A DNA stretch of 24,000 nt from Pseudomonadota bacterium (GTDB lineage: Bacteria; Pseudomonadota; Gammaproteobacteria; Burkholderiales; Sulfuricellaceae): assembly GCA_021801705.1 (NCBI GenBank), contig JAJYXP010000001.1, forward strand, positions 9,581-33,580, given 5' to 3'. Positions within the stretch are counted from its first letter, which is position 1; the number at the start of each line of letters is the position of its first letter. Shown in pieces: positions 1-20,592 of the stretch. The notes below the pieces were generated by a model. That model was not told the DNA's origin, searched no databases, and worked only from the letters and a program-made list of their open reading frames with translations. A program made the translations under genes and the position numbers.

Positions 1-963
1 GCACATTTTATCGCTCGGCCGGCGCAGCCGGAATTTTGCATCCGCGCCGCGGCCGGCGCTGCCCTGCAGCATCCCCCGTTCGTGGGGATTATGGCAGGTG
101 GCGCAAAAAACCTGGCCGTTGGTCGGATCCAGCGGCAACTCCACACCATATTTTTTTTCCGTCTCTTTCATGAATGCGGCGATTTCCGGTGTCGGTTTGG
201 TCAAATGATTCGGGCCCGTCGAACTAATTCCCGGAGGATGCGGAATCCAGGGGTGGCAACCGGTACATAGCTGGGTCAGATCGTCGGTAACGTTGAAGCT
301 GGCGTCGGCGATGCTTTTTACCTGGAACCGGTTCGGGCTGTCGCGGTGGCACGGCAGACAGGCCTTCTTGTTCAGCGTGCCTTCGTCGGTGATCTGGTCA
401 TGCGGATTGAGCCGCTCGTACTGGCTCGGATCATGGCAGTTAAAGCAGAGATCGGTGCGGTACTGAAAGGGTCCGCCGCGAAAGAACATCGGGTTGAGCT
501 TCCGTTCGGCAAAGCGCTCCTTCTGGCATTGCATGGGCAGGTCATGGCAGGCGATGCAGGTGATAACCCCGCCGCCGCGTTTTAACGCTTGGGCGAACGC
601 TTCCGGCATACGGTTTTTCTTTTCCGCAGACGGTTTCATGTCCACCGCATGGATATGGTTCTTAGCCGAATCGGGAACATGGCAGTTGAAGCAAAGCCGG
701 TTGATATTCTTGCCGCGCAACGCCGTATTTTGTGCAGTAGGCCTGCCCTTGTGACAAGCTTGGCAAGCATCCTCTCTCCAGTGGGGATCGGGGATGCGCT
801 CCGGGGTGGTTTTACCGGTGGCGAGCAGATTGGGTATTTCCTCGATCTGCTCGAACAGCCGCTCGTCCCTCGCGACGGCTTTCTTTGTTGGCGGCTCCGC
901 TGCCCACAGCATGGTAAAAGACAGCAGCATGGCTACGCCAACCCACAGCCATTTTAACGCCAT
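1..963 (-). CDS. Secreted multihaem c-type cytochrome (at least 7 haems). The C-terminus lies beyond the window start, and the ORF is absent from the supplied track.
   Basis: Manual minus-strand translation gives ATG at 963-961. Plus-strand frame-1 triplets 1-963 contain no TTA/CTA/TCA, so there is no minus-strand stop. The N-terminus MALKWLWVGVAMLLSFTMLWAAEPP is signal-peptide-like. There are seven CxxCH motifs (CQACH, CFNCH, CIACH, CFNCH, CLPCH, CTGCH, CATCH). The start overlaps the upstream gene's stop by 10 nt (ATGGCGTTAA). Confidence 0.85.
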   Translation of the reverse strand, partial: MALKWLWVGVAMLLSFTMLWAAEPPTKKAVARDERLFEQIEEIPNLLATGKTTPERIPDPHWREDACQACHKGRPTAQNTALRGKNINRLCFNCHVPDSAKNHIHAVDMKPSAEKKNRMPEAFAQALKRGGGVITCIACHDLPMQCQKERFAERKLNPMFFRGGPFQYRTDLCFNCHDPSQYERLNPHDQITDEGTLNKKACLPCHRDSPNRFQVKSIADASFNVTDDLTQLCTGCHPWIPHPPGISSTGPNHLTKPTPEIAAFMKETEKKYGVELPLDPTNGQVFCATCHNPHERGMLQGSAGRGADAKFRLRRPSDKMC

Positions 964-2090
964 GCGCTAACCCCGCCTTCCTGTGTTGCCACAAACAGGG
1001 TGTTATCCGCAAGCATGGGGGCGCCGAATACGGCCGAGCCGATATTTTTTTCCCATACTATTTTGCGTGTATCCAGATCCATGGCGTACAGTCGTCCGCT
1101 CATAGTCCCGATCACTCCTATGCGGTTGGCGCCAACCGTGAAACCGTGACGCAACTCGCTGCCTAGCGATGTTTGCCAGACTACAGCGCCGTCTGCCGCC
1201 TTTAGCCCATACAGCGTTCCATTGTGGCTGCCTATATACAGTATTCCGTCCATCAACAACGGCGTCCCTTGCGGCCAATCCTCCAGTTCCGTCCGCCAGA
1301 CGATGGCCCCGGTGCTTGCGTCGAGCGCATATACGCGGCGGTCATAGGCGCCGAGATAGATCGTGTCTCCAGCCACCAATGGCGCATCATATATGGCAGA
1401 CCCGAGTTCCGTTCGCCAGGCGGGTTTTCCGCTGTGCCGCCAAATTGCGTGGAACACACCATTCTTTGCGCCGATATAGACCCGTTCCTTGTCCAAGCCT
1501 GGCGAGGCATATAATCCGCCGTAGCGGTAATCTTCCGCGTAATAGCGCCAGAGTATCTTGCCGTTGGCAAAATCCAGCGCATACAAAAACAGGTCGTTGC
1601 TGCCCAAATACAGCGTGTCGTCGTCCACCACCGGGGAAGAAAGTATTTTTCCGCCCGTTCTGATCTGCCATTTCTGCTTGCCGGTTTTGGTGTTTAACGC
1701 AGTGACTGTTCCATCTTTGGACGCTACCGCAATGGTCTCCCCTGCTATCACCGGGGTGGCTGAGATGGCGCTGCCAGCGGCATAATTCCATAACACCCGC
1801 CCCCTTTCCTTGTCCAACGCCCACAAGCGCTGATCGTGCCCGGCCACATAGACCGCTTTGCCGCTGGCAACAGGAGAGCCATAGACTCCCCCGCCCAGCT
1901 TGATTTCCCATAGCTTGACGGGGTTTGCCGGGACGGAATGGGTGCTGTGAAAAGTATGGCCGGCATCTCCTCCTATCATCGGCCAATCGGCTGCTCTGGC
2001 TGAGATGATGGTCAAAATCAGTGCGCCGAGGAAAAGTATTTTTAGTTTGCCATCGAAAATCGTCCAATCCACCGAACCGTCCACCTTCAT
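954..2090 (-). CDS. PQQ-like (BamB/YVTN-type) beta-propeller repeat protein, about 8 blades, secreted or N-anchored
   Basis: Lies in ORF 954..2201. About eight ~40-aa repeats end in motifs such as RLWALDKERGRVLW, TVTALNTKTGKQKW, FLYALDFANGKILW, RVYALDASTGAIVW, TLYGLKAADGAVVW and RLYAMDLDTRKIVW. The N-terminus has a hydrophobic stretch LKILFLGALILTIISARA. No CxxCH motif. The start is uncertain: TTG 2201, ATG 2168, ATG 2090, or GTG 2072 preceded by AAGGTGGA. Confidence 0.85.
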   Translation of the reverse strand: MKVDGSVDWTIFDGKLKILFLGALILTIISARAADWPMIGGDAGHTFHSTHSVPANPVKLWEIKLGGGVYGSPVASGKAVYVAGHDQRLWALDKERGRVLWNYAAGSAISATPVIAGETIAVASKDGTVTALNTKTGKQKWQIRTGGKILSSPVVDDDTLYLGSNDLFLYALDFANGKILWRYYAEDYRYGGLYASPGLDKERVYIGAKNGVFHAIWRHSGKPAWRTELGSAIYDAPLVAGDTIYLGAYDRRVYALDASTGAIVWRTELEDWPQGTPLLMDGILYIGSHNGTLYGLKAADGAVVWQTSLGSELRHGFTVGANRIGVIGTMSGRLYAMDLDTRKIVWEKNIGSAVFGAPMLADNTLFVATQEGGVSAWR

Positions 2091-2317
2091 CAGAAAGCGC
2101 CTGCCCGAAACATGCAGTTCCTGTGTTTCGTCTCCGGACGATTTCTGAGGTTGGATACGCCCCGGCATCTTTTTCACTCTCGATAATTCAATGATATACA
2201 AATTATATCAAGGGAATACGATATTGCCATTTGTTATGCCGGGCTTTCATGTGCCCCGTGAAGAACGATACCGATCGCGGTTAAGAAGCCGCAATATTTC
2301 GGCTAGCGCCTGCGGGG

Positions 2318-2351
2318 GAACAAAGGGGGAAACGGTGCGCCCCCTTTGTTC
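2318..2351 (-). terminator. Perfect 12-bp stem / 10-nt loop hairpin immediately after the module-B trihaem gene stop. Possible terminator or mRNA-stabilising stem; it lacks a U-tract.
   Basis: GAACAAAGGGGG (2318-2329), loop aaacggtgcg, CCCCCTTTGTTC (2340-2351). It lies 4 nt downstream of the stop at 2355-2357 on the minus strand. The following sequence is C/G-rich, not T-rich. Confidence 0.4.
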
Positions 2352-2354
2352 GTG

Positions 2355-3260
2355 CTACCTCGGCACCGGAGTCTGGGTCTGCTCCCCGTGCAGTTCGAAA
2401 AACCTGGGCAGGTAGAATTCGCGGTACTTGTTGATCATGCCCACGACCGCGGTATTCTCCAGCCGATCGATCCGGCGCGGAGGATAACCCAGCTCGGCAA
2501 ATGGCAGGTAGGATTTCTCCATGTTATGGCAGTCCTCGCACAGCAACGGCTTTTCGCTTACCTTGTTGTGCATCACCCTCTTCATCCTTGCCTGCTCGGT
2601 AGAATCCATAGCATCTTTTGTTTTCAAGTATTTCGCCAAAAACAACCTTTCCTCGTCACCGTTGATAAAGCGGAAAGTACCGTTATCAGCCTGGGTTCCC
2701 GGGGCGATCTTGGTTCCGTAGTTACCGTATTTCTCCAGATCAGGGGAAACAAGCGCCGGCGGGTTGGCCACCACCTGGCCGGTTTTCTTGTCGTACCAAC
2801 GGAAAGTCCAGGGCGCCTGATCCGGCTTTGCCATGGTATTGATGTGGCAGGTCTCGCAGGCGATATAAAACGCATGCATGTTTAAAAATGCGCGTATGGT
2901 TTTGGCCTTGTTATGGGGCACCGCTCCATGGCACTTTATGCACACATTCGTTTCGTCCGTCTCCACCGTCATGCCGATGTGGTGAAAATGGCCTTTCACG
3001 TATTGCTCCTTTAAGACGACGTAACCCAGGTCGGTGGTTTCCGTCGCTTTCTGTTCCGCCCTGATCTTATGCAACGCTTTTTCTTCTGCGGTTAAAGCTC
3101 CGGGCATTCTCAGGTCGGCGCCGGCGGACGGTTGCGCCGCTTCTTCATGCCCGCCATGGCTAAATATGAGGGGATAGATGAAATAACCGAACCAAATGGC
3201 ATAGGCCATCAGCGCGATTACGTAGAGTTTGCCTATCAGTTGCTTCAAACGACCCAACAT
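2355..3260 (-). CDS. N-terminally membrane-anchored trihaem c-type cytochrome (module B, subunit 3)
   Basis: Lies in ORF 2355..3302. The preferred start is ATG 3260, with GGAG 7 nt upstream (ATG 3302 would overlap the upstream gene by 23 nt). One N-terminal TM helix (LYVIALMAYAIWFGYFIYPLIF). Three CxxCH motifs (CIKCH, CETCH, CEDCH). Paralogous to 5430..6236. Confidence 0.85.
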   Translation of the reverse strand: MLGRLKQLIGKLYVIALMAYAIWFGYFIYPLIFSHGGHEEAAQPSAGADLRMPGALTAEEKALHKIRAEQKATETTDLGYVVLKEQYVKGHFHHIGMTVETDETNVCIKCHGAVPHNKAKTIRAFLNMHAFYIACETCHINTMAKPDQAPWTFRWYDKKTGQVVANPPALVSPDLEKYGNYGTKIAPGTQADNGTFRFINGDEERLFLAKYLKTKDAMDSTEQARMKRVMHNKVSEKPLLCEDCHNMEKSYLPFAELGYPPRRIDRLENTAVVGMINKYREFYLPRFFELHGEQTQTPVPR

Positions 3261-3279
3261 GTCTATTCTCCGGCCTTTA

Positions 3280-4077
3280 TTAGTGCTGAGGTTTGATTTC
3301 ATCCTGGAGGCCCTGTTCCGTCATGACCTTCACATATTCGGCGTAATGCTCGTGAATCATGTCATCTTCCGAGAGATACCCGGTGATGAATACCGTGCCC
3401 AGGGGGAATTTCTCGGGCGCGTAGTGCACGTTGTACCAATGGACGAAGAAGATGAACAGGGCCGCCAGCAAGGCCTCGTCGGTATGCATGATGTAGAGGG
3501 CGTTCAACACGATGCCGGGGAGGAAGTGGGTGAACTCATCCCGCCACCAAAGAATAAAGCCGGCCGGACCCAGAACGGGAATACCCCAGTAGGGCGCATA
3601 GTAGTCGAACTTCTCCTTCCAGGACATGCGGTCATAGCGCGGCGGCCGGTTGGTGAAGTAAAGAAGATACCTGAACATGTCGATCAGGTCGTAGAAATCC
3701 TTCTTGTTCGGAATCATCGGCTGGTTTAGAAATTCTCTGCCGACATTGCCCAAAGTAAGATCCCCTGCCCTTTTCAGGGGCAACACCCGTCTGGTGTAGA
3801 ACAGGTAAATCCAGTAAATGGTATGGTAGACGAACAAGCCCAGCAGGATGGAGCCGGCGATGTGGTGAAGCACCGGTGCAACGTTAATCCCTCCCATAAA
3901 GTTGATGAGAGGCTCCGCCCACGCCTTATCGTGGTATTTCAAGGGGAATCCGGTTAGAGACAGCGTGATCACGGTGGTGAACACCACGACGTGCTGCAGC
4001 CGCTGATGCAATGAGAACCGGAAGAAGTACCTCTTCCCGTTCCTTTCGCATATCTTTTTATATTTCGGCATAGACAT
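3280..4077 (-). CDS. Four-TM b-type cytochrome, HydC/FdnI-like (Ni/Fe-hydrogenase / formate dehydrogenase gamma type), putative dihaem (module B, subunit 2)
   Basis: 265 aa. TM1 RLQHVVVFTTVITLSLTGF, TM2 VLHHIAGSILLGLFVYHTIYWI, TM3 YYAPYWGIPVLGPAGFILWW, TM4 IMHTDEALLAALFIFFVHWYNVHY. The His residues are conserved with paralog 6229..6951. GAGGG Shine-Dalgarno sequence upstream of ATG 4077. Confidence 0.85.
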   Translation of the reverse strand: MSMPKYKKICERNGKRYFFRFSLHQRLQHVVVFTTVITLSLTGFPLKYHDKAWAEPLINFMGGINVAPVLHHIAGSILLGLFVYHTIYWIYLFYTRRVLPLKRAGDLTLGNVGREFLNQPMIPNKKDFYDLIDMFRYLLYFTNRPPRYDRMSWKEKFDYYAPYWGIPVLGPAGFILWWRDEFTHFLPGIVLNALYIMHTDEALLAALFIFFVHWYNVHYAPEKFPLGTVFITGYLSEDDMIHEHYAEYVKVMTEQGLQDEIKPQH

Positions 4078-4112
4078 ACAGTTACCCTCAATCAGTGCGC
4101 GTTTTCAACTTG

Positions 4113-5183
4113 TTATCTGGAGGAATGATGATCATCGCCCGTCGGTTTCACGAAGGAGTAATGGGGAAAGAGCCTCCTTAACAACTCCAGGAAGATAAGC
4201 GTCAGGAAGAAATACAACACGCCTGCCGTCAGCCAGGTAAAAAATACCAACATGTAATGCTGCAAGGGATACTTGTCTTTGTCATAGGTAACGTGAACCT
4301 GATAACCGGCCAGCTTTTCACCCGCTTTTTCATGGCATTCGGAGGTGCGGCAGGTGGTCGGAACATTCTTCTTGTTGCTGGCCGATGTCGGGGATTTCTT
4401 GCTTTCGATGAAGTGCACGCCCTCTCCCTTGACAACGTGGCAATCGGTGCAATCCGGCGTTTCCTGCGAGCCAAACAGCAGCGCCTTGTAATGGTAGGTT
4501 TCCTTATAGGAGGTAACCACGTCGTCCAGCTTGTGCCGCTGCTGGAACTCTTTATCGCCGTGGCACTTGGCGCAGATTCCCACGATTTCCTTCGGATCGC
4601 GCATCTTGCGCAGCCGCGAGGTCACGTGCTTGTAAAAGGATTCGGCGAAATCGCCCGTGCGGTGGCAGGTCTGGCAGCGGGCCAACCCACGCTCCGACAC
4701 GCCACTGCTTTTGCCCTTGAAAAAAGACAGGGGGCGGTACAGCGGTTCTTCGTGACAGTCCTTGCAACCGGGGTAGTCTTGCTGGTCTTTTTTGGGCTTT
4801 CCGTCCGCGTCCAGCTTGCCGTGAACGCTCTTGGCCAGCAGATCAGATACTGGTTTGTGTGAAAAATTTTTCTGGCCTGAGGGCTCGATTAAATGGCACT
4901 CGGTGGTGCACTCGACCTTCTTGGCGGGATCATGGGGGATTTTCTTGATATCCTGATGGCAGTCCGCACACTTTATCCTGACGTGAGGGCCTTCCTTGAA
5001 AATAGCCTCGTTGATGTAAAACAGCCGGAATTTACCGTTTTCATCTATGCGGCTCAGGCCTCGATACTTGTGGCAGAGAAGGCAGTCCAATTCATCCTCG
5101 GCATTAACGGCTCCTGCTATGCCGCAGAGCAACAAAGCTGCAAGGAGCGTAACGACGCGCGTTTTGAAGAATGACTTACCCAT
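4113..5183 (-). CDS. Multihaem c-type cytochrome with signal peptide and C-terminal TM anchor; 6 CxxCH + CX3CH + CX4CH (module B, subunit 1)
   Basis: 356 aa. Signal peptide MGKSFFKTRVVTLLAALLLCGIAGAVNA. Motifs in order: CLLCH, CADCH, CTTECH, CKDCH, CQTCH, CAKCH, CTDCH, CRTSECH. C-terminal helix YMLVFFTWLTAGVLYFFLTLIFLELL. Confidence 0.9.
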   Translation of the reverse strand: MGKSFFKTRVVTLLAALLLCGIAGAVNAEDELDCLLCHKYRGLSRIDENGKFRLFYINEAIFKEGPHVRIKCADCHQDIKKIPHDPAKKVECTTECHLIEPSGQKNFSHKPVSDLLAKSVHGKLDADGKPKKDQQDYPGCKDCHEEPLYRPLSFFKGKSSGVSERGLARCQTCHRTGDFAESFYKHVTSRLRKMRDPKEIVGICAKCHGDKEFQQRHKLDDVVTSYKETYHYKALLFGSQETPDCTDCHVVKGEGVHFIESKKSPTSASNKKNVPTTCRTSECHEKAGEKLAGYQVHVTYDKDKYPLQHYMLVFFTWLTAGVLYFFLTLIFLELLRRLFPHYSFVKPTGDDHHSSR

Positions 5184-5429
5184 TGGCCAGCCCTTTTCTT
5201 ATTTTGTCAAACTCTTGCCAAGCCACTTCCGCATAGCAGCGCAGTGCTTAAAGTTAATCCCGGCAAACCAAGCAGCTTTGTACCCACCTCCAGGGGGGGA
5301 ATTCGGGTTTATTCGACGCCGCCCCGCCCTTTATCAGAACATAGTAAGATAAGAATATCTTCATATCCTAAACATTGCAATACGTTCACACCGGTTTTTT
5401 ATGCGTCTATAAATATATTTTTGGCCGCC

Positions 5430-6236
5430 TTATTGGTGGCTGCGTGCGTCATGGAGCGTGGGCAGATAAAATTCCTTATACTGTTTTATTATGGTTGCCC
5501 CATCGCCGAATTCCAGGCGCTGCGCCCTTTCCGGCGAATACAAGAGCCGGGTGAAATCAAGCATTCCGTTTTCCTTGTGACATTGGCCACAAAAAACGGG
5601 TTTCGCTGACAAATCCTTATGAATCTCCGTGTTAAGGCGGTCCTTCAGTTTCCGTAAATCTCCATTGCCCTCGTTTTTTCCGGTATCGTCGGGAAGCAGG
5701 TTGGCGGCCACGGCTTCGTCGAGAAGCGGGCCTGCGGATGCGTTTTCGTCAAGTCGTTTGGCAACCCCTTTTTCGGCCCTGAATGGAACGATAGTGCCGC
5801 CATAATCCCCCGGTTTGCCCTTCAGCTCCGTCAATGTAAGATTTGAGCCGCGCTGCAGCCATTTGTACTCGAACCGTTCACCTTCTTTAGGCACGATGTG
5901 GCAAACCTCGCAAGCCATGAAGAACGAATGGGCATTGAGAATTCCCCGCACCTCTTTGGACTTTGAGTGCGAATAATCCTTATGGCACTTCAGGCACCAC
6001 GACTGTGACTTGCCCCCCTCGAGTACGGATTCGCCGGCGCCGTGAAAGGGCTCATAAACCATCTCCCGACGAGGGACGGCGCGTTTCGCCAGCGCCTCTT
6101 CACTTTGGGATGCGTCCCTGAAGTATGTAAGCCACAGCAACCAGGCGGAAAAAGCTGCCAGCAGGATAAAAATGATCGCCATCGTAAGATGGACGAAAAA
6201 TTTCTTCGGAGCGCCGGCAATGCCACCCTTATGCAT
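5430..6236 (-). CDS. N-terminally membrane-anchored trihaem c-type cytochrome (module A, subunit 3)
   Basis: Lies in ORF 5430..6299. The preferred start is ATG 6236, with GGAGG 9 nt upstream and an 8-nt overlap with the upstream stop. TM helix VHLTMAIIFILLAAFSAWLLWLTYF. Three CxxCH motifs (CLKCH, CEVCH, CGQCH). The shared C-terminal motif KQYKEFYLP matches NKYREFYLP in the paralog. Confidence 0.85.
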   Translation of the reverse strand: MHKGGIAGAPKKFFVHLTMAIIFILLAAFSAWLLWLTYFRDASQSEEALAKRAVPRREMVYEPFHGAGESVLEGGKSQSWCLKCHKDYSHSKSKEVRGILNAHSFFMACEVCHIVPKEGERFEYKWLQRGSNLTLTELKGKPGDYGGTIVPFRAEKGVAKRLDENASAGPLLDEAVAANLLPDDTGKNEGNGDLRKLKDRLNTEIHKDLSAKPVFCGQCHKENGMLDFTRLLYSPERAQRLEFGDGATIIKQYKEFYLPTLHDARSHQ

Positions 6237-6951
6237 TGCCACGCCCTCCCACTGCGCCGTTCGCGGGTTTTGACGCTTCTTCCGCAATGATTCTTTCATA
6301 CCAGAGCGAATGTTCTTCCTTCATCAGCGTCTCGGAGATCTTGCCGTCGATAAAAGCCCTGTTCATCGGATAAACGTGCGGATTGTAATGAACTGCGAAA
6401 ATATGCCCCACAATAATTGCAAGCGCGGCGAGAGTCGCCTCTCCCAAATGGAGCGCATCTGCCACATCGAGATAGAATTTGGGCCAGTATGATTGCGTCC
6501 ACATCATGGCGCCGGTACTGATCACGATGAACATGCCGAAGTAGACGGAGAAGTATTCCAGCTTCTCAAGATAGGTGAAACGGTCCAGCCTGGGCCGTTC
6601 CTTCCGCAGACCCAACATATACATGACATTCTGATAGGCATCCACAAGGTCCCTCGGTTTCGGCAGCATGTCGCGGAACCAGCTTTTGCCATCAGCCTTG
6701 AACATGACATAGTAGAGGTGATAAAAGCACACGGCGGTGACGGCCGCTGCAGCAATGCGGTGAACGATTCCGCGCCAGTAGAAGATGGTCTTTCCGGCCG
6801 CGCCAAGCAAATCTACAGCCGACCTTTCACCCATCAACATAAAGCCGGTGATGATCAGCAAAGTAGTTGAAACGAACATGATGGCATGCTGGACTCTTTC
6901 GCTCCTCGTAAGCCTGACGAAGGCTTTTTCGCTCTTTCCGTGACGGCTCAT
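6229..6951 (-). CDS. Four-TM b-type cytochrome, HydC/FdnI-like, putative dihaem (module A, subunit 2)
   Basis: 240 aa. TM1 RVQHAIMFVSTTLLIITGF, TM2 GIVHRIAAAAVTAVCFYHLYYV, TM3 YFSVYFGMFIVISTGAMMW, TM4 LHLGEATLAALAIIVGHIFAVHY. ATGA start/stop overlap with the upstream cytochrome at 6948-6951. Confidence 0.85.
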   Translation of the reverse strand: MSRHGKSEKAFVRLTRSERVQHAIMFVSTTLLIITGFMLMGERSAVDLLGAAGKTIFYWRGIVHRIAAAAVTAVCFYHLYYVMFKADGKSWFRDMLPKPRDLVDAYQNVMYMLGLRKERPRLDRFTYLEKLEYFSVYFGMFIVISTGAMMWTQSYWPKFYLDVADALHLGEATLAALAIIVGHIFAVHYNPHVYPMNRAFIDGKISETLMKEEHSLWYERIIAEEASKPANGAVGGRGNA

Positions 6952-8096
6952 CTCAGTGCCCCCTCCTTCTTGCTATCCCGGTGCGTTGCATAAAGATCCA
7001 GCAGCCTGTGACCACCGAGCCCGCCGATCACGGCAGCGATGAGAATCTGATAAAAAAGTTTTATCCAATGCAACACCTTGGCCTGGAATATTTCCCTGTT
7101 CCGCGCGGCATCCGCGCTTTCTTCAGACTCCTCCATCAGATGCGCCACCTTGACCGGGGATATGTGCACCTTGCTGCCCGTGGCAAACTCCTTCGTCGCA
7201 TTGACGTGGCAGCCGGACTGCGAACACGTTGCACGCTTGTTGTCCGCATTGGTCGGCGATTTTTTGTTCCGCTTGGAAGTGATTCGGTGAGGTGAAAAGC
7301 CCAGCGCATACGGTGCATGGCAATTCAGGCAGTTAGCCACTTCCACGTCCCCGTATTGAATCGCTTTGGCATGGTAAGTATCCTGAAATCCGGCTATCAC
7401 ATCCAGTTTATGCCTCGCCATGATCCCCGGGTTCGCGTGGCATTTGCTGCAAAGCTTGACCACGTCCGCCGAGGGCCTCCGAATCGAAGCGCGGTAAGTG
7501 ACATGGCGGAAAAAACGCTCTGCCCATGCCTGCTCTTCATGGCACTGATGGCAAACCTGCAGGAATGCCATCGATTTGGCCTGTCCTTGAAAACCGAGTT
7601 GGTAAGGCTTATTGGCATGGCAGTCCCTGCAGGCGGGCAAATCGTCTTTGTTTTTTGACAGCGAGCCCTCAACGCCGTGTGTGCTTTTTTTCAGGTCTTC
7701 CACAATCGCCTTGTGGGAGAAAACCTTGCCGGTGGAGGGCTCAATCACGTGACAGGATTTACCGCAATCTACTTTTTTCGCACCCGTGTGAGGAATCTTG
7801 TCCACCCCTTCATGGCAGTCCGAGCAATTCAACTTTCCATGATACGAGGCTTGGTGCAAATCCTCATTGACATAAAAGACCCTCTTCACGACCCGTTTTT
7901 TGGCGTCTATTTCATAACGCCCCAAGCCGGGGTACTTGTGACACATGAGGCACGTGTCTTGACCTTCGGATGCAAAGACTGGAGAGGGGGGCAAGGCTAT
8001 CGCCGCGGCAAGGGCAACGCCCGAAAGACAAGTCCAGAAACTCCCTTGCATGCGCGTGATAGCGGCAGGCTTGCATCCTGGTAATTGAAGCCTCAT
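6948..8096 (-). CDS. Multihaem c-type cytochrome with signal peptide and C-terminal TM anchor; 6 CxxCH + CX3CH + CX4CH (module A, subunit 1)
   Basis: Lies in ORF 6948..8144. The preferred start is ATG 8096 (GAGGA 6 nt upstream); ATG 8051 is an alternative. Signal region SGVALAAAIALPPSPVFA. Motifs in order: CLMCH, CSDCH, CGKSCH, CRDCH, CHQCH, CSKCH, CLNCH, CSQSGCH. C-terminal helix IKLFYQILIAAVIGGLGG. Confidence 0.9.
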   Translation of the reverse strand: MRLQLPGCKPAAITRMQGSFWTCLSGVALAAAIALPPSPVFASEGQDTCLMCHKYPGLGRYEIDAKKRVVKRVFYVNEDLHQASYHGKLNCSDCHEGVDKIPHTGAKKVDCGKSCHVIEPSTGKVFSHKAIVEDLKKSTHGVEGSLSKNKDDLPACRDCHANKPYQLGFQGQAKSMAFLQVCHQCHEEQAWAERFFRHVTYRASIRRPSADVVKLCSKCHANPGIMARHKLDVIAGFQDTYHAKAIQYGDVEVANCLNCHAPYALGFSPHRITSKRNKKSPTNADNKRATCSQSGCHVNATKEFATGSKVHISPVKVAHLMEESEESADAARNREIFQAKVLHWIKLFYQILIAAVIGGLGGHRLLDLYATHRDSKKEGALR

Positions 8097-8360
8097 CCGT
8101 TTTCCTCGCCCTTTGCAGGTAATTTGACGGGCTTGGCAAGCCAAGCCGGGGCAGGCTCATATCCGCACCCCGCATTCACGCGGGTTGGTTTGATGGTGAT
8201 TTATCGCAAGCCGCAGCATCGCGCTTGCTTCACCGACAAAACCGCTGCGCCTAGCAACATTCTAGCAAATTATTTACGGAAATAAAGATCCTGATATCTG
8301 CTTAATGGCCTGAATGCTGCTGTTTTTTTCCTCCCTTTCGCTGCGGGCAACGCCGCCCCG

Positions 8361-9347
8361 TCAATCGTTCAATTTATAGACGGAAATTTTGTTGCGCAAC
8401 ATCTCTGCCGCATAAAGCCGGTTGTCCCGGCCCACGGCGATACCTCCCACCGACACGAAGCGCTGCGGCGCGCCGTCTTGCCCCAGAACGCGCAAAAACT
8501 TCCCGTCAGCGTCAAAAACCTGGATCACGTCCATATAGCTGTCGCTGATATAGACTTGATTTTTTTCGTCGACGGCCACGCCTTTCGGACGGTAGAGCTC
8601 CCCTGGAAGCACCCCCCAAGATCCGATCTGGACGAGCAGCGCACCTTCTTCATCGAATGCCTGAGCACGGGAATTAAGAACGTCCACGACATACACCGTC
8701 CCGTTGGACGCCATCGCTACGGTTGCCGGATAGCGGAACCGCCCATTGCCCTCGCCGTATCCGCCCCACTGGCGCACCATCTTGCCGGAGCCTGAAAATC
8801 TCATGACCTTGTTGTTGGCGGAGACGTAGATTTTTGCACCGGAAGCATCCGCCGCCACATCGATGGGGCGCACCGCCACCCCTTTGTCGATAACCGGGAA
8901 TGCGTATTGGAAATGACCCTCGGCGCTGAATACCTGGATGCGGTGGTTACCGGTATCGGCTACGTACACGCGGCCCCTGCCGTCGGTCCCGATGCCGACC
9001 GGGTCTTTGAATTGCCCTTCAGCCGATCCCTTCCGGCCAAAGCTGAGAAGATACCTGCCATTGCGGTCAAAAACGACCACGCGCTGGTTTCCGCCGTCAA
9101 CCACATAAATGCGGTCATCGCTGCCGAGCGCCACATCGGAAGGCAAGGACAGCCCACCGGCTCCCTGGCCGGTAACTTCAAACAGGAGGCGAACGCTTGC
9201 AGTGGGGATGCCGGCGGCGAATGATGCGCTAAGCCAGCCTGCGAGCATGGCTGAAAGGACCGCTCGCAATGCTTGCCGGAGCGTGGCGTTGCGCCCCCAT
9301 GGGCTGGGCAGACCTGTTTCCAGCGCCCGTGCTCCCCATCGTGGCAT
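8361..9347 (-). CDS. Secreted six-bladed NHL-repeat beta-propeller protein
   Basis: Lies in ORF 8361..9401. Six NHL-type repeats, for example FKDPVGIGTDGRGRVYVADTGNHRIQVF and LYRPKGVAVDEKNQVYISDSYMDVIQVF. Hydrophobic signal-like stretch AVLSAMLAGWLSASFAA. Start uncertain: TTG 9401 with GGAGG 10 nt upstream, or ATG 9347. Confidence 0.85.
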   Translation of the reverse strand: MPRWGARALETGLPSPWGRNATLRQALRAVLSAMLAGWLSASFAAGIPTASVRLLFEVTGQGAGGLSLPSDVALGSDDRIYVVDGGNQRVVVFDRNGRYLLSFGRKGSAEGQFKDPVGIGTDGRGRVYVADTGNHRIQVFSAEGHFQYAFPVIDKGVAVRPIDVAADASGAKIYVSANNKVMRFSGSGKMVRQWGGYGEGNGRFRYPATVAMASNGTVYVVDVLNSRAQAFDEEGALLVQIGSWGVLPGELYRPKGVAVDEKNQVYISDSYMDVIQVFDADGKFLRVLGQDGAPQRFVSVGGIAVGRDNRLYAAEMLRNKISVYKLND

Positions 9348-9419
9348 TTTTTTAGTCTCCGGCGGATTCAAGTTCGAAGCGCAACAGCGAATCGTGAACA
9401 AGTATAGCGCACCTCCCTG

Positions 9420-9743
9420 CTATTCGTTCAAGGCCAACAGAATCAGCCCTGCAAGGATGGCAAAGAGAACGATCCAGCCGACAATCCTGATAGCGGTTCC
9501 GACAGTATCGCCCGGGCCGTCCTTCCCTGCCGCGGGCATTCCAACAAAAAAACCGATCTCGCTGCCATACCATATGCAGCCAAGCGGAAGAACCAGAACG
9601 GCAATCGCAAGGTGGAGAATCTCGTGTTTTACCAGGAAGTGGGCTACTGCCATACACACGATTGCCACTAAAATCGATGCAACACGTCCGGCATCCAATC
9701 CCTCGGCTTCCACTTCACGATGCCCCTCGTTCAAGTGCTGCAC
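9420..9743 (-). CDS. Small hypothetical integral membrane protein (about 3 TM)
   Basis: 107-aa ORF with a GTG start. Hydrophobic segments VASILVAIVCMAVAHFLV, LHLAIAVLVLPLGCIWY and IRIVGWIVLFAILAGLILLAL. No recognisable family. It is co-oriented between the Rrf2 and NHL genes. Confidence 0.5.
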   Translation of the reverse strand: MQHLNEGHREVEAEGLDAGRVASILVAIVCMAVAHFLVKHEILHLAIAVLVLPLGCIWYGSEIGFFVGMPAAGKDGPGDTVGTAIRIVGWIVLFAILAGLILLALNE

Positions 9744-9888
9744 TGGGCATGACCTTCCGCTCCCGGTCTATGCGCAAGGAAATTGGCTGCACTTGTCCCC
9801 GGAGGGCGTGACTGGGATAAAGCATCTGGGCGGCTCAAATTATTATTTTGCCACTTTCTCGCTTTGATTCATCAAACCCAACGGGCTG

Positions 9889-10353
9889 CTAGCCCAGTTC
9901 CGCATCCAGAATTGTCGCCGGCAGATCGCGAATGCGGTATTTCCCGCTTTGCACCGCCACGGCCAGCCGCTCGAGGGTATGCTCGTGCATCATGGCGACA
10001 ATTTTTTCCTTGATCGGCTTCCATTTCGAATGCACCGGGCAGGCGGTTTCCTCGCTGCATATTTTCAGACCCAGCACACAGTTTTCACTAAAGCCGACGC
10101 CTTCAATCAGCGTCACAATCTGCATCAAGTCGGTCTTTTCGCCCCCCTCTCGCAGGCAGAACCCCCCTTGGCGGCCACGGTAGGAATAGAGCAGGTTTCC
10201 CCTGCACAAGCTTTGCATGATTTTGGCGAGATAGGCCGTGGGGACACCAAGATATTCCGCAACCTTGCGGTTAAGAATAGGCTCGCCGCGCGGTTGCGTA
10301 GCAATGTAAATCAGCGCCTGGATTGCGTACTGGCTGGTTCGGGATAAAATCAT
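9889..10353 (-). CDS. Rrf2-family transcriptional regulator with a putative Fe-S-binding Cys triad (NsrR/IscR-like)
   Basis: Lies in ORF 9889..10425. The likely start is ATG 10353 (MILSRTSQYAIQALIYIA, the typical Rrf2 N-terminus, with GGAG 5 nt upstream). wHTH region VAEYLGVPTAYLAKIMQSL. Cys cluster CVLGLKICSEETAC (C-x6-C-x5-C). Confidence 0.85.
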   Translation of the reverse strand: MILSRTSQYAIQALIYIATQPRGEPILNRKVAEYLGVPTAYLAKIMQSLCRGNLLYSYRGRQGGFCLREGGEKTDLMQIVTLIEGVGFSENCVLGLKICSEETACPVHSKWKPIKEKIVAMMHEHTLERLAVAVQSGKYRIRDLPATILDAELG

Positions 10354-10448: not shown

Positions 10449-11126
10449 TCAGTCCAACAACGCCATCCGAAGCAAGCCGGCCACCTCATCGGCGGACAGG
10501 CCTTCCTGATATGGCACCTCACCAAGCAGGGGTGCTTGCAGTCCATGTTCCAGTGCCGCCACATTTTCCCTTAAAAACGGCATGCCGGGTTCGATCTGAT
10601 TCGCCACCCACCCGGCAAGCCTGAGGCCGCGCTGCTTCATAACCTGGGCGGAAAGCAAGGCGTGATTCAGGCAACCCAGCCGCATGCCGACCACCAAAAT
10701 TACGGGAACCCCAAGCCGCTGGGCCATATCAGCGGTATCCTCGCGCCGATTGAGCGGCACCATGAAACCGCCGACACCTTCGACCACCACCACATCGGAC
10801 ATTGCCTGCAATCGCCGGAAAGCGTCCAGCACAGTCCCGATGCCAATTTCCACGCCGGCCCGCTCGGCGGCGATATGGGGGGCAACGGGCAGAACCAGTG
10901 CGTACGGATTGACCAGCTCAGGCGGCGCCGCAACATTGCCTGCGGCACGCAGACTTTCCACATCCGCGCAGCGCAGCCCGCCGGTTGTTTCCTCACAGCC
11001 GGCGGCGACCGGCTTCATGCCAACCGCCCGAAAACCGCGGCTGACGAAAGCACGAAGCAACGCACTGGCAATCAGGGTCTTGCCTACATTGGTATCGGTG
11101 CCGGTGATGAAATAAGCTTTTTTCAT
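10449..11126 (-). CDS. bioD: Dethiobiotin synthetase
   Basis: N-terminal P-loop MKKAYFITGTDTNVGKT. 225 aa. Last gene of the bio cluster. Confidence 0.9.
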   Translation of the reverse strand: MKKAYFITGTDTNVGKTLIASALLRAFVSRGFRAVGMKPVAAGCEETTGGLRCADVESLRAAGNVAAPPELVNPYALVLPVAPHIAAERAGVEIGIGTVLDAFRRLQAMSDVVVVEGVGGFMVPLNRREDTADMAQRLGVPVILVVGMRLGCLNHALLSAQVMKQRGLRLAGWVANQIEPGMPFLRENVAALEHGLQAPLLGEVPYQEGLSADEVAGLLRMALLD

Positions 11127-11268
11127 GAGGGATAAAACCGTTTAACCGCAGCGGAACGGCAAGATCAAAACCGCCGGCCAACCCAAATGGCGCAAACGAA
11201 GGAAATAAGCTTTTTCAAAGAGTTCAAGGTTTTCCTCTCTGCGCCCTCCGCGTCCGCTGCAGTGAAGA

Positions 11269-12147
11269 TTATTTTTTAGCAAAACGCACCACCTGCGCCC
11301 CGTCCGGCAGCTTCGGCTGCCTTTTCTCGCCTTTCCAGGCATGACCGTACACTACCTCATAGGTCGCCGGCAGCTTGCCGTCGCGGCGCAGCGCCTCGTA
11401 ACTCTGCTGCACACGCTGCCAGGCGGTCTTGCCCAGCAGGCCACGGCGGCGCCCCTGATTGGCGTTGTGCGCGCCCAGCGCCTTGAGGTCGCGCATCAAG
11501 CCTGCCAGGTCGGCATAGGTCAGGGTGATGGTTTCCATGTCCATCACCGGCGCGGCGAAACCCGCCCCCATCAGCGCATCGCCGACATCGTGCATGTCGG
11601 GAAAACGGTTGACATGGGCATAAGAATCCAGCGCGCCGAATGCCTGGCGCAATTCCTTCAGGGTGTCCGGGCCGAGGGTGCTGAACATGAGCAGCCCGCC
11701 GCTTTCCAGCGCTCGCCACATGCCGCCGAAGGTCGCATCGAGATCGTTGCTCCATTGCAACGCCAGGTTGGACCAGATCATGCCGACGCTCCCGGCGCGC
11801 AAAGGCAGGTTCTCGATGTCTCCGCACACCCGTTCTTCGCCGGCCAAGAACGGCAGCAGGCGCTTCCACGCGGGCTGGTGGCCACGCGACGCCAGCAGCA
11901 TGGCCGGCGCAATGTCCAGTTCTATCACGCGCGCCTTGGCATAGCGTTCCCGCAACTGCCGCGAGCCGTAGCCGGTACCGGAGCCGGCATCGAGAATAAG
12001 ATTAGGCTCGTATTTGATGTATTGCAGGCGCCCGGCCATGCGGTCGCAGATTTCCCGCTGCAGCACCGCCACCCGGTCGTAGGTGGCAGCGGCGCGGTCG
12101 AAAGAGCGGCGCACCCGGCGCTTGTCCAGCGTGAATTGGTCAGTCAT
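11269..12147 (-). CDS. bioC: Malonyl-ACP O-methyltransferase
   Basis: SAM-methyltransferase motif ILDAGSGTGYG. N-terminal FDRAAATYD. 8-nt overlap with the bioH stop. Sits between bioH and bioD. Confidence 0.85.
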   Translation of the reverse strand: MTDQFTLDKRRVRRSFDRAAATYDRVAVLQREICDRMAGRLQYIKYEPNLILDAGSGTGYGSRQLRERYAKARVIELDIAPAMLLASRGHQPAWKRLLPFLAGEERVCGDIENLPLRAGSVGMIWSNLALQWSNDLDATFGGMWRALESGGLLMFSTLGPDTLKELRQAFGALDSYAHVNRFPDMHDVGDALMGAGFAAPVMDMETITLTYADLAGLMRDLKALGAHNANQGRRRGLLGKTAWQRVQQSYEALRRDGKLPATYEVVYGHAWKGEKRQPKLPDGAQVVRFAKK

Positions 12148-12904
12148 GCAAAAATCCGGTCACAATCTCGGTAAATTTCCCAGGGTGGGACAAAAACGGC
12201 GCATGGGCGGCGCCCGGCAGCACATTCAGACGCGCGTCCGGCATCCGTTCGGCCAGCCATCTGGCCGCGCCCACCGGCGTGAGCATGTCGCGCTCGCCAT
12301 GCAGCAGCAAAGCCGGCGTTTTCACGGCAGCGGCGCGGTCGCGCAAATCGGTTCCGAGCAAAATACCGAGCCCCGCCCGCAAAGCTTCAGCGCTCGGACG
12401 CCCCTTGGCAAACAAGTTGTCACGCAGGCGTTTCAGCACCGTTTTGACTGCGTCATCGCCGCGCGCCTGCAGCGCCAGAAAACGCTTCAACGTGCCATCG
12501 CAATCCGATTCCAGCGCGGCGGCGAATTCCAGCAGCACATCGCGTTCCACCGCCCACGGCCACTCGTCTTTTATCGTGAAGCATGGCGTGGTGGCCACCA
12601 AAACCAGGCGCGACACTTTTTCCGGGTAAAGCGATGCCATTTCCAGCGCCACCTGCCCGCCCAGCGACCAGCCGCAAACGGCCGCCCTCTCCGGCAGCGC
12701 TGCCGCCACGGCGTGGATGAGATTTTCCAGTTCGCAAGGATCGAGCGCAGGACTGGCGCCATGGCCGGGCAAATCCACCAGATGCAGGCGAAAACGCCGC
12801 GCCAGGTCGTCGCGCACCCCGTCCCACACCCCGCCATGCATGCCCCAACCGTGGAGCAGCGCTATATCTGCGCCCATCCCAACCGTTTCGACGAACACGC
12901 TCAA
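12140..12904 (-). CDS. bioH: Pimeloyl-ACP methyl ester carboxylesterase
   Basis: Alpha/beta hydrolase with LLHGWG and the nucleophile elbow GWSLGG. TTG start overlapping the bioF TGA (TTGA). Context bioF-bioH-bioC. Confidence 0.85.
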   Translation of the reverse strand: MSVFVETVGMGADIALLHGWGMHGGVWDGVRDDLARRFRLHLVDLPGHGASPALDPCELENLIHAVAAALPERAAVCGWSLGGQVALEMASLYPEKVSRLVLVATTPCFTIKDEWPWAVERDVLLEFAAALESDCDGTLKRFLALQARGDDAVKTVLKRLRDNLFAKGRPSAEALRAGLGILLGTDLRDRAAAVKTPALLLHGERDMLTPVGAARWLAERMPDARLNVLPGAAHAPFLSHPGKFTEIVTGFLHD

Positions 12905-14064
12905 AGGGTGCGCTCCAGCGCGTTCAGCGCTTCCACCAGCCGGGCAATATCTGCATCACTATGCGCCGCTGACAGGGAAATGCGCAGGCGCGCCTCGCCC
13001 TTCGGCACGGTGGGCGGCCGAATCGCCGGCACGCAGATGTTGCGCTTGCGCAGCGCCTCGCTCACCGCCAGCGTTTCCTTGTTGCTGCCGATAATGACCG
13101 GCTGGATCGGCGTGATTGATTCCATCAGACGCCAGCGCTCCAGCTTGAGCCCCTGCTTCAGGGCAGCGATGAGTTGCCGCAGCCGCGCCTGCCGCCAGGC
13201 CTCGTTTTCGATCAGCTCCAGGCTGGTGGAAAGGGCCGCCGCCAGCGCTGGCGGCATGGCGGTTGTATAGATGTAGGTGCGGGCGCGTTGCACCAGAAAA
13301 TCCACCAGTTCGGCCGGCCCGGCGGCAAAGGCGCCAAACACGCCGGCGGCTTTGCCCAGCGTTGCCATGTAAATGATCCGCTCCGACGGCGCGATGCCGA
13401 AATGTTCGAGCACGCCGCGCCCGGTTCTTCCCAACACGCCGAAGCCGTGCGCGTCATCCAGCAGCAGCAACGCATCATGGCGCTCGCACAGGGCGAGCAA
13501 CTCAGGTACCGGAGCGATATCGCCGTCCATGCTGAATACGGCATCCGTCACCACCAGCTTGCGCCTCGCCCTGGAAGCGGCAAGGCGCTTCTCCAGTGCC
13601 GAAAGGTCGAGATGCGGATAGCGGCTATGCCTGGCGCGAGACAGCAGCGCTGCGTCGTTGAGCGAGGCGTGATTGAGCTTGTCGGCGAAAATCTCGTCAT
13701 TGCGCCCGACCAGGGCGCTAACGATGCCGAGATTGGCCATGTAGCCGGTGGAAAACAACAATGCCGCCTGCCGGCCGGTAAAGCTGGCCAGCGTCTCTTC
13801 CAGCCGATGATGCGGCGCCATATGCCCGCCCGCCAGGTGCGACGACCCTGCTCCCAGACCATATTGCGCTGCCGCCGACTTGAGCGTGTCGACCAGGGCT
13901 GCATGATTGGCCAACCCCAGATAGTCGTTGCTGCTGAAGGACAGGCAATGCATGTCGCCCACCATGACGCGCGCGCCCTGGGGGCCCTTCAGCACGTGCC
14001 GCCGCCGGCGCAACCCTTGCTCTTCCAGCAGGTTCAGCGCTTCAGTCAAAGGAGAGAAGGACAC
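12901..14064 (-). CDS. bioF: 8-amino-7-oxononanoate synthase
   Basis: PLP-dependent class-II aminotransferase fold: SNDYLGL, LLLDDAHGFG and the PLP-lysine motif ATLGKA. 387 aa. Confidence 0.9.
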   Translation of the reverse strand: MSFSPLTEALNLLEEQGLRRRRHVLKGPQGARVMVGDMHCLSFSSNDYLGLANHAALVDTLKSAAAQYGLGAGSSHLAGGHMAPHHRLEETLASFTGRQAALLFSTGYMANLGIVSALVGRNDEIFADKLNHASLNDAALLSRARHSRYPHLDLSALEKRLAASRARRKLVVTDAVFSMDGDIAPVPELLALCERHDALLLLDDAHGFGVLGRTGRGVLEHFGIAPSERIIYMATLGKAAGVFGAFAAGPAELVDFLVQRARTYIYTTAMPPALAAALSTSLELIENEAWRQARLRQLIAALKQGLKLERWRLMESITPIQPVIIGSNKETLAVSEALRKRNICVPAIRPPTVPKGEARLRISLSAAHSDADIARLVEALNALERTL

Positions 14065-14104
14065 GGGGTGAACCGGACGCAGCTTGAATGGCCGGGATCG
14101 CTGC

Positions 14105-15103: not shown

Positions 15104-15497
15104 GAACCTCTACCTCCACCATCATGTCCTGCCAGTTTTCACGGCTTATTCTGATCAGATCCCGGATTCCCAGCGGCACCACTACCAACAGACTCACGGC
15201 CCAGACTGTCGCCACCATATTGAAAGTCCCGCCCAGTAGCGCCTTGAGCGGGCCGGCGAAATTCAAAATCACCACCAGCGAACCGGCGATACCGTAGAAA
15301 CGATAGCCGGCCCAGCGCTGATATTCCCTGACACGATGGTCGGGATGATGGGCGACGGAGGCATAGACGAAAATCGAGAGGGCTATCCACACCATGATCA
15401 GCGGCGGAAGCAGCACGGAAATCATACTGCCGATAATGAATAGTTGCGCCGAACGCCGGGATTGCGCCGCGCTAATAAGTTTCTCAAACTTTTCCAT
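15096..15497 (-). CDS. Small hypothetical integral membrane protein (about 4 TM), translationally coupled to bioB
   Basis: 133 aa. Hydrophobic segments [46 protein letters not shown] and [18 protein letters not shown]. Its stop and the bioB start overlap by 8 nt (ATGAATGA). Confidence 0.6.
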
Positions 15498-15613
15498 TAC
15501 TCGTCTTTACCTGAATTATTAAAGTAAAATGAGCGCAATTTTCAAGGATTAACCCACAGTTGTCAAATATTGCCGGACACATTTTAAACATCTGTATAAA
15601 TATTGGGCGCCAT

Positions 15614-16513: not shown

Positions 16514-16577
16514 CCGTTTCAACCAATTCGGCGAAGCTGGCATTTTGACCGCTATTGGAATTAAACTTAAAAAACCC

Positions 16578-17115: not shown

Positions 17116-17117
17116 TT

Positions 17118-18550: not shown

Positions 18551-18578
18551 CACTGCGCCGGTTCTGCCCACCATGACA

Positions 18579-19040: not shown

Positions 19041-19086
19041 GAAGTTCCCTAACTAGAAATAAAATAAATAAATTTGCCGGCCAGAA

Positions 19087-19506: not shown

Positions 19507-19522
19507 CGCCGACTTCCCGTGT

Positions 19523-20550: not shown

Positions 20551-20592
20551 CCGGCTGTCTGAGCAATCTGCAGCGAGGGGAAGCCGCTGCCC

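Follow-up and report, generated by a model that had tools for sequence, protein, structure and literature searches.

Gene content of the locus

The window analysed here, a 24,000-nt stretch of contig JAJYXP010000001.1 (assembly GCA_021801705.1), carries at positions 1-10353 a locus of multihaem cytochrome genes, all of them on the minus strand. Two copies of a gene triplet, here called modules A and B, make up its middle part, and each encodes a membrane-anchored octahaem cytochrome c, a dihaem cytochrome b, and a membrane-anchored trihaem cytochrome c. We propose that the triplets probably act as quinone-coupled modules of the inner membrane. The host, a sulfur oxidiser, is represented by a Sulfuricella-like metagenome-assembled genome (MAG) and is not a member of the Gallionellaceae; near-identical MAGs are labelled Sulfuricella sp.

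In module A, the genes for the octahaem protein (6948-8096), the cytochrome b (6229-6951), and the trihaem protein (5430-6236) overlap by 4 nt and 8 nt, respectively, and in module B the corresponding genes (4113-5183, 3280-4077, and 2355-3260) are spaced 19 to 35 nt apart. Both octahaem proteins have a signal peptide, six CxxCH motifs, one CxxxCH, one CxxxxCH, and a C-terminal transmembrane (TM) anchor, and both trihaem proteins have an N-terminal TM anchor and three CxxCH. The cytochrome b of module A has four TM helices and scores 59.8 bits against PF01292 (cutoff, 30.1); that of module B is a FdnI/HydC-like paralogue of the B type with a longer TM2-TM3 loop. The modules are paralogous in all three subunits, with 35% identity between the octahaem proteins (E = 5e-64), 26% between the cytochromes b (E = 1e-28), and 28% between the trihaem proteins (E = 2e-24).

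Beta-propeller genes lie on either side of the modules. Upstream are a six-bladed NHL-repeat propeller with an N-terminal signal or anchor sequence (8361-9401; PF01436, 102 bits), a 107-aa protein with three TM helices and a conserved VLPLGCIWYG-EIG motif (9420-9743), and an Rrf2-family regulator (9889-10353) whose membership in the locus is uncertain. Downstream are an eight-bladed periplasmic propeller of the PQQ_2/BamB-like type (954-2090; PF13360, 185 bits, and PF13570) and a periplasmic octahaem cytochrome c with a signal peptide and matches to Paired_CXXCH_1 and Cytochrome_C7. The gene for the latter (1-963) is cut by the window start and overlaps the propeller gene by 10 nt. An initial annotation of this DNA had assigned all of these genes to the minus strand, where we found them as well; its title spoke of ten genes, whereas its own list held eleven, the number we count in the window.

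The proteins of the window locus contain 25 canonical CxxCH motifs (7 + 3 + 6 + 3 + 6), compared with a mean of 0.14 and a maximum of 2 in 2,000 residue shuffles of the same proteins. Four noncanonical motifs, one CxxxCH and one CxxxxCH in each module octahaem protein, come in addition. The feature is real and strongly non-random. Our recount reproduced the figures of the initial annotation (25 canonical motifs, four variants, and two dihaem b subunits). Scans with Pfam and NCBIfam agreed with its view that no barrel and no ferredoxin-like, NrfD, molybdopterin, or Rieske subunit is present, in that no porin, ferredoxin-type, NrfD, molybdopterin, or Rieske domain was matched in any locus protein. 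The matches obtained were confined to generic cytochrome, PF01292, NHL, and PQQ_2/BamB-like models, no complex-specific NCBIfam or Pfam model reached its cutoff, and the PDB profile matches included no whole-protein relative of a locus protein among solved structures. Publicly, the proteins are labelled "hypothetical," "cytochrome C," "cytochrome c3 family protein," or "formate dehydrogenase subunit gamma."

Does the locus continue beyond the window start? The window is 100% identical to contig JAMCQJ010000108.1 of GCA_023382095.1 (locus L008), on which the octahaem cytochrome at the window start is complete, with 327 aa and 8 CxxCH; the earlier figure of at least seven haems describes the part inside the window, which has 7 CxxCH. 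A single further co-oriented gene follows (L008:15536-18574). It encodes a secreted cytochrome of 1,012 aa with 24 CxxCH. Eight of its haem sites form an N-terminal part, and the others lie in four tetrahaem repeats in tandem, which are 35-42% identical to one another. Its family, which includes cultured Thiohalomonas denitrificans, has 619 homologues, is conserved over the full length, and keeps all 24 motifs. This gene brings the locus to 12 genes, with some 54 c-haem sites in all. The initial annotation had pointed to this region as a possible place for a porin or more cytochromes: the cytochrome is there, and no porin was found among the genes called in the 6 kb past the window start.

All secreted cytochromes of the locus carry plain Sec signal peptides without a lipobox. 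Against the DmsE/MtrA-family model TIGR03508 (cutoff, 192 bits), the octahaem protein scored 28 bits and the 24-haem protein 89 bits. PDB profile searches with the octahaem, 24-haem, and trihaem proteins returned local haem-motif matches only (NrfB, 7TFS, and 1SP3). We infer that the 24-haem protein spans the periplasm. The locus ends after the 24-haem gene, and next to it on L008 stand an opposite-strand gene for a 219-aa lipoprotein (18937-19596, minus), with relatives in 10 related loci, and then a gene for an Fnr-type regulator that scores above its NCBIfam cutoff (20131-20895, plus).

The octahaem, cytochrome b, and trihaem proteins as one membrane complex

Are the three proteins of a module parts of a single complex? 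Gene fusions speak to this directly. The cytochrome b is fused to the trihaem protein in 11 related loci and to the octahaem protein in two (L071 and L077). An exhaustive search for the trihaem family among 1.84 billion representatives yielded 264 members. We found one octahaem-trihaem fusion (P0435) and five single polypeptides of 833 to 908 aa that unite octahaem, b, and trihaem parts (P0442, P0443, P0479, P0486, and P0561), in which the gene order is kept and all 11 motifs are present. These triple fusions have about six predicted TM segments, with PF01292 in the center in those tested; the cleanest is P0442, with six. As shown by natural fusions in every combination, the octahaem, b, and trihaem proteins form one membrane complex, with a predicted helix count of 1 + 4 + 1. 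The topology that follows from these helices is self-consistent, since both c domains would be periplasmic and both termini of the cytochrome b cytoplasmic, as in FdnI. The fusions thus fix the composition and topology of the triplet without experiment. A separate observation concerns P0448 (767 aa), a b-trihaem fusion with a C-terminal FGE-sulfatase (SUMF1-like) domain (PF03781, 203 bits), which suggests that some organisms can connect the module to a redox enzyme domain.

The profile of the cytochrome b family matched Escherichia coli FdnI (PDB 1KQF chain C) over the full length (E = 6.6e-14). All four haem ligands of FdnI (His18, His57, His155, and His169), as well as its cytoplasmic TM2-TM3 loop, align with the b family, so that the two proteins agree in fold, ligands, and loop. 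Five histidines (H22, H64, H78, H168, and H183 in module A numbering) are conserved when both paralogues are aligned with homologues from the database and with fusion proteins. These data support the assignment of the b subunits as FdnI-type dihaem cytochromes with a putative quinone site, and the profile match and the four aligned ligands bear out their initial description as dihaem proteins. In E. coli Fdn, the partner subunit FdnH supplies an extra anchor helix, and partner-subunit helices are likewise found here. The locus differs from Fdn in having no molybdoenzyme or iron-sulfur (FeS) subunit, and multihaem c subunits stand in the place of FdnH. The FdnI equivalog models scored far below their cutoffs on the cytochrome b (TIGR01583, 52.8 versus 115.85; NF007924, 28.9 versus 341), and no Fdh catalytic genes lie nearby; the label "formate dehydrogenase gamma" is therefore a misnomer.

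The two c-type partners are conserved in a characteristic way. Across 32 homologues of the module octahaem protein, all eight motifs are invariant, the CxxxCH and the CxxxxCH included, and so are eight further histidines. These additional histidines would be enough for bis-His ligation of all eight haems, and because bis-His ligation is possible at every haem, we argue that the octahaem protein is an electron-transfer protein and not an enzyme. At the cytoplasmic end of its C-terminal helix lies another histidine (His363 in module A), an A-type feature present in 26 of the 32 sequences. The octahaem domain of two fusion proteins reached the cutoff for the MtrC/MtrF electron-transfer pentahaem domain. 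The family has 311 database members, almost all without names. Conserved in the trihaem family (117 sequences) are the three CxxCH, four other histidines, and a C-terminal Y-x2-F-x2-P motif. An octahaem protein with invariant CxxxCH and CxxxxCH, plus an anchored trihaem protein, provides a specific marker of the triplet.

Distribution and genomic setting

A scan of one genome per species gave 80 loci related to that of the window, all in MAGs. Within the Pseudomonadota, the hosts belong to Sulfuricella, Sulfurimicrobium, Sideroxydans, the Gallionellaceae, the Rhodocyclaceae, Thiodiazotropha, Sedimenticola, the Polarisedimenticolaceae, and the Thiohalomonadaceae; other hosts are many Desulfobacterota (including Desulfobulbaceae and Desulfocapsaceae) and one member of the Myxococcota. 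The complete genome of a Deferribacteres isolate (L092) also encodes, in this order, octahaem, b, trihaem, and NHL proteins and a 1,038-aa cytochrome. The triplet thus recurs in at least four phyla (Pseudomonadota, Desulfobacterota, Myxococcota, and, with this isolate, Deferribacteres). A search for the same gene order had been proposed in the initial annotation; once run, it revealed a neighbourhood conserved across phyla. Judged from sequence, the fusions and this cross-phylum synteny strengthen the earlier idea of a "module" considerably and make it a much stronger one.

The triplet is intact in 75 of the 80 loci, as one copy in 45, two copies in 16, and three copies in 14. An NHL gene is present in 62 of the loci, an 18-24-haem cytochrome in 53, and a 7-15-haem cytochrome like the one at the window start in 47. 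NHL and large-cytochrome genes directly adjoin each other in 36 loci, with NHL upstream in most relatives, and a BamB-like propeller adjoins an octahaem cytochrome like that at the window start in 13. The cytochromes b fall into three paralogue clades, A (78 loci), B (29 loci), and a third type (18 loci), each of which spans Pseudomonadota and Desulfobacterota; we regard the three types of triplet as ancient. Approximately 13 loci consist of a solitary triplet with unrelated neighbours. No catalytic gene recurs beside these solitary triplets, which argues that the triplet is self-contained and has no conserved catalytic partner. In Thiodiazotropha and relatives, a signal peptidase S26 gene lies between cytochrome modules (L036, L037 [5780-6700], L040, L042, L043, and L053).

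The propellers bring up the question of a porin. NHL and BamB-like propellers may serve as scaffolds. BamB itself was rejected as the identity of the PQQ_2 propeller, which scored 201 against TIGR03300 (cutoff, 285) and has no cysteine and hence neither a lipobox nor a lipoprotein Cys. In 11 Beta- and Gammaproteobacterial relatives, genes for NHL, a tetrahaem cytochrome, a protein of about 600 aa, a BamB-like propeller, and an octahaem cytochrome occur in this sequence, and the window retains only the propeller and octahaem pair of this order. The gene for the ~600-aa protein (L017:15335-17176, minus strand; also in L015, L016, L018, L020, L022, L024-L027, and L031) encodes a product that has a signal peptide, lacks haem motifs, contains two cysteines at most, and is rich in Ser, Gly, Asn, and Tyr. 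The protein shows 13 alternating amphipathic segments, compared with 3.9 ± 1.8 in shuffles, and the family has no relative in Pfam, NCBIfam, or PDB. From its composition and strand pattern, it may be an outer-membrane barrel, and maybe a new type of porin for conduits. The presence of this porin-like gene in 11 relatives suggests that the family overall is probably a trans-envelope conduit and not purely periplasmic. The "periplasmic" framing of the initial annotation therefore probably falls short for the family. For the locus itself, an extracellular or outer-membrane partner is presumed.

Five blocks of the locus (Rrf2; 3-TM and NHL; module A; module B; propeller and octahaem) are parted by gaps of 145-264 bp. 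A terminator-like hairpin lies directly 3' of the module B trihaem gene (2328-2344, minus), and the best sigma-70-like promoter of the locus, ATGGCA-17-TATAAT with an upstream TG, lies upstream of the propeller gene (2202-2230, minus); both are consensus matches only. The gaps and these signals suggest several transcription units, and they speak against a single ten-gene operon. The motif TTGG[CT]TTGCC occurs exactly twice in the window (0.2 expected), once upstream of each module, all on the minus strand: as TTGGCTTGCC at 8135-8144 before module A, within the palindrome TTGGC-TT-GCCAA, and as TTGGTTTGCC at 5262-5271 before module B. Only the closest relative, L012, also conserves it (the L008/L012 lineage), and it may be a lineage-specific operator. 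Neither Fnr boxes (11 versus 7.8 expected) nor sigma54 promoters (12 versus 17 expected) are enriched in the window, and no Rfam element was found in it. The Rrf2 protein, which has a cluster-type Cys-x6-Cys-x5-Cys-x2-His motif, is a generic family member, above cutoff only for the superfamily model TIGR00738. Its gene adjoins the cluster only in L008 and L012 and is thus not a conserved part of it. The 3-TM protein matches no family and is confined to betaproteobacterial versions of the cluster.

The G+C (GC) content of the locus is 54.3%, versus 60.7% for positions 10449-24000, and its third-position GC (GC3) is below that of the adjacent bio genes; the lower GC is compatible with horizontal acquisition. 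Directly upstream and co-oriented lies a complete biotin operon (bioB, bioF, bioH, bioC, and bioD; 10449-15103, minus), with about 95 bp between bioD and the Rrf2 gene. At 15096-17196 (minus), five consecutive open reading frames of 106-178 aa have no Pfam match at E ≤ 0.001, and the two of them scanned against NCBIfam (15487-16020 and 16039-16488) gave no match there.

Known systems, alternative readings, and meaning

How does the locus relate to described electron-transfer systems? CbcL/MtoC, CbcBA, the DFE clusters, PCC3, and the Deferribacter cluster were likened to it from published descriptions, by architecture only. CbcL, MtoC, and MtrH consist of an N-terminal multihaem c domain (3-23 CxxCH) fused to six TM helices with a HydC/FdnI-like dihaem b, and occur in 15 phyla, among Fe(III) reducers and Fe(II) oxidisers (PMC6295460). 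CbcL was considered unique in coupling b directly to c without FeS, Mo, or NiFe subunits; the Fdn/Phs type of its b motif points to quinone chemistry at the cytoplasmic side, and the Phs thiosulfate reductase is cited as having a homologous b domain (10.1101/2022.08.31.506072). The triplet shares with this family (Geobacter sulfurreducens GSU0274, Gallionella/Dechloromonas MtoC, and Rhodoferax MtrH) a PF01292 cytochrome b coupled to periplasmic multihaem c, a total of six membrane helices, here as 1 + 4 + 1, and hosts that include metal reducers and lithotrophic oxidisers. The histidine pattern of CbcL (one each in helices 1-3 and two in helix 5) is matched when the anchor His363 of the octahaem protein is counted in, and the octahaem-b fusions of L071 and L077 reproduce the CbcL layout. 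CbcL, however, is one polypeptide with 9 CxxCH, whereas the unit in the window is three separate genes whose large c protein has 8 sites including the invariant CxxxCH and CxxxxCH. Moreover, the sixth helix of the triplet bears an extra periplasmic trihaem domain, and two to three paralogous modules stand side by side. By architecture, the nearest analogy we can offer is that the triplet would be a split, trihaem-extended relative of the CbcL class.

CbcBA of Geobacter (GSU0593-0594) resembles the modules in having a separate four-TM dihaem b and a C-terminally anchored multihaem c. The anchor helix of CbcA is proposed to carry a His, and that of A-type octahaem proteins also has one. CbcA has 7 haems, compared with 8 haem sites in the window octahaem proteins; CbcB has three ligand histidines, the fourth being supplied by CbcA, whereas the window b has four to five of its own; and CbcBA is without the anchored trihaem subunit that the window modules have. 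The regulation of CbcBA is of the sigma54/BccR type. The window shows no sigma54 enrichment and has an Rrf2 neighbour instead, and sigma54 activators adjoin some relatives of the cluster, as with CbcBA. The initial annotation had named CbcL/CbcBA as the closest analogy, and the pairing of a PF01292-type b with anchored multihaem c agrees with that choice.

Other systems share single traits with the locus. In Desulfovibrio ferrophilus IS5, DFE_448-451 and DFE_461-465 also combine large multihaem cytochromes with NHL propellers, proposed there as scaffolds, and lack a canonical porin (PMC5815863); the cytochromes there have 12-14 haems versus 24 here, and no cytochrome b or inner-membrane module is described for them. 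An uncharacterised, cytochrome-rich "19-gene cluster" of Deferribacter (DEFDS_0741-60/FHQ18_02900-02990) encodes a 28-haem protein, and its third gene is a "formate dehydrogenase"/cytochrome b561 gene (PMC13186404, PMC6896113). The cytochrome b is third in L092 as well, and from position and composition the Deferribacter cluster, which is larger than the window locus and whose host is an iron reducer, is probably homologous to the triplet cluster. We found no paper that describes the triplet itself. The term "undescribed" in the initial annotation thus stands for the triplet, with the qualification that the literature contains a probable homologue in Deferribacter and clusters of NHL and multihaem genes in D. 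ferrophilus, neither of them characterised in this detail.

PCC3 of Sideroxydans and Leptothrix has a very large periplasmic multihaem cytochrome with a median of 21 haems and low-complexity repeats, to which the secreted 24-haem protein may be likened, and a dihaem protein of its inner membrane is proposed to contact the quinone pool, as we propose for the b subunit here. That membrane protein has five TM helices, two WX3HX13H motifs, SGXXG, and no Pfam family, whereas the window b is a four-TM PF01292 protein without SGXXG. PCC3 also depends on a porin and on an extracellular cytochrome with some 34 haems, and the window contains neither. Membership in PCC3 was therefore rejected. Uet was set aside as well (no UetJ undecahaem, UetC porin, UetF cupredoxin, or c7-type soluble trihaem proteins; only NHL in common), as were MtrAB/MtoAB (TIGR03508 below cutoff, no porin), ACIII, Qrc, Hmc, Tmc, and Nrf (no NrfD-type or FeS subunit match in any locus protein), and the Ferrigenium "octaheme complex," which has a different, bd-like architecture. 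With the defining subunits absent and no complex-specific model at cutoff, we concur with the initial annotation that the locus does not match Mtr/Mto/PCC3, ACIII, Qrc, Hmc/Tmc, or Nrf.

Our preferred reading, which we hold to be probable, is that modules A and B are paralogous quinone/quinol:multihaem-cytochrome oxidoreductases of the inner membrane, of a split CbcL type, that exchange electrons with secreted multihaem wires. In each module, a four-helix dihaem b of the FdnI/HydC type would be joined by an octahaem c, held by its C-terminal helix, and by a trihaem c, held by its N-terminal helix. Through the cytochrome b, electrons would cross the membrane toward or away from a quinone site, presumably on the cytoplasmic side (N-side). 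Starting at this site, the route would pass both haems of b, then the haem chains of the octahaem and trihaem proteins, and then the 8-haem and 24-haem wires, or it would run in reverse. With the quinone site on the N-side, the membrane potential would assist outward flow from quinol to cytochromes, with no energy conserved, as has been proposed for CbcL, and electron uptake from donors of low potential would be electrogenic. The reaction of Phs is driven by the membrane potential. FdnI homology and the anchored c partners support the quinone-coupled inner-membrane modules put forward in the initial annotation; the scaffold role it gave to the propellers is a conjecture.

Several points weigh against this reading. 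Oxidoreductase activity and haem binding are predicted for every member from sequence, and the quinone site is placed by extrapolation from FdnI. The cytochrome b of module B falls below the PF01292 cutoff (24.3 versus 30.1 bits), although it is paralogous to that of module A (E = 1e-28), and five conserved histidines for two haems leave the ligation ambiguous. AlphaFold models reached only moderate confidence (predicted local distance difference test [pLDDT] of 70 and 73) and gave no structural relatives in a fold search. The likeness to CbcL, MtoC, and CbcA is one of architecture. The 24-kb window and the 6 kb past its start contain no outer-membrane component, so that an extracellular partner is unproven in this genome. 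Finally, the hosts include both oxidisers and reducers, and the direction of flow can therefore not be read from phylogeny.

Could the system be confined to the periplasm? In that case the modules would work as quinol dehydrogenases or quinone reductases, either for soluble periplasmic redox enzymes or to store electrons. The 24-haem protein would then serve as a capacitor, and all electrons would stay inside the cell in this organism. The lack of a porin or outer-membrane cytochrome in the window or just past its start fits this possibility, as do the solitary triplets of about 13 loci, which have no large cytochrome nearby, and the plain Sec signals of the secreted cytochromes. We nevertheless consider it unlikely: across phyla the triplet is tied to very large linear multihaem proteins and NHL, a hallmark of extracellular electron transfer clusters (D. 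ferrophilus, Uet, and PCC3); 11 relatives have the porin-like gene beside the same BamB-like and octahaem pair that is found in the window; and no conserved periplasmic enzyme neighbours the triplet.

Two further possibilities would shift the emphasis to a single subunit. If the octahaem protein were a catalytic enzyme like HAO, ONR, OTR, or MccA, acting on a sulfur or nitrogen compound, the b and trihaem proteins would be only its quinone-linked anchor. Its eight haems, two of them at the unusual CxxxCH and CxxxxCH, would suit such a role, all hosts are sulfur-cycling organisms, and the trihaem protein matches the tetrathionate-reductase family weakly and locally (TIGR04315 and 1SP3). However, the eight additional invariant histidines offer a distal ligand for each haem and leave no obvious open site. 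TIGR04315 scored 35 bits (cutoff, 375), neither a family hidden Markov model nor a fold match linked the octahaem protein to HAO, ONR, OTR, MccA, or any other octahaem enzyme, and its domain reaches the MtrC/MtrF pentahaem-domain cutoff in the two fusions mentioned above; we judge catalysis very improbable. The cytochrome b might instead be a true gamma subunit of a formate dehydrogenase or hydrogenase, with the cytochromes as incidental neighbours, as database names such as "formate dehydrogenase subunit gamma" and its homology to FdnI would have it. This idea is effectively refuted and we give it almost no credence, since the window locus and the 80 related loci have no molybdopterin, FeS, or NiFe subunit, the equivalog scores are far too low, and the protein is covalently fused to cytochromes c in many genomes.

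A bolder extension of the quinone-linked module reading is that the triplet, NHL propeller, 18-24-haem wire, and octahaem cytochrome, joined in some lineages by the BamB-like propeller and the porin-like barrel, constitute a horizontally mobile, complete trans-envelope conduit, previously unrecognised, that serves electron exchange with solids through side-by-side, tuned modules. We put this forward tentatively, as a possibility that is at present rather doubtful. If it were true, sulfur- and iron-oxidising chemolithoautotrophs, for example Sulfuricella, Sulfurimicrobium, Sideroxydans, and Thiodiazotropha symbionts, and likewise Desulfobulbales could exchange electrons with solids. The adjacent modules of types A and B and of the third type would then each suit a redox window of their own or carry electrons in opposite directions.

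To our knowledge, the genetics of electron passage between the quinone pool and cytochromes of the periplasm or the cell exterior has been worked out for few proteins only (CymA, ImcH, CbcL, and CbcBA), and lithotrophic electron uptake is a largely open problem. The triplet would add to these a distinct, three-subunit relative of CbcL that is widespread and has so far been annotated as "hypothetical" or wrongly as formate dehydrogenase. Cultured carriers exist, among them the Deferribacteres isolate; candidates are Deferribacteres strain DY0037 and Deferribacter spp., with Thiohalomonas denitrificans as another should it have the triplet. The side-by-side paralogues offer a natural system for studying how specificity for redox window or direction is encoded. 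For sulfur oxidisers, lucinid-clam symbionts, and Desulfobulbales, the triplet is a candidate point of electron entry or exit at the inner membrane.

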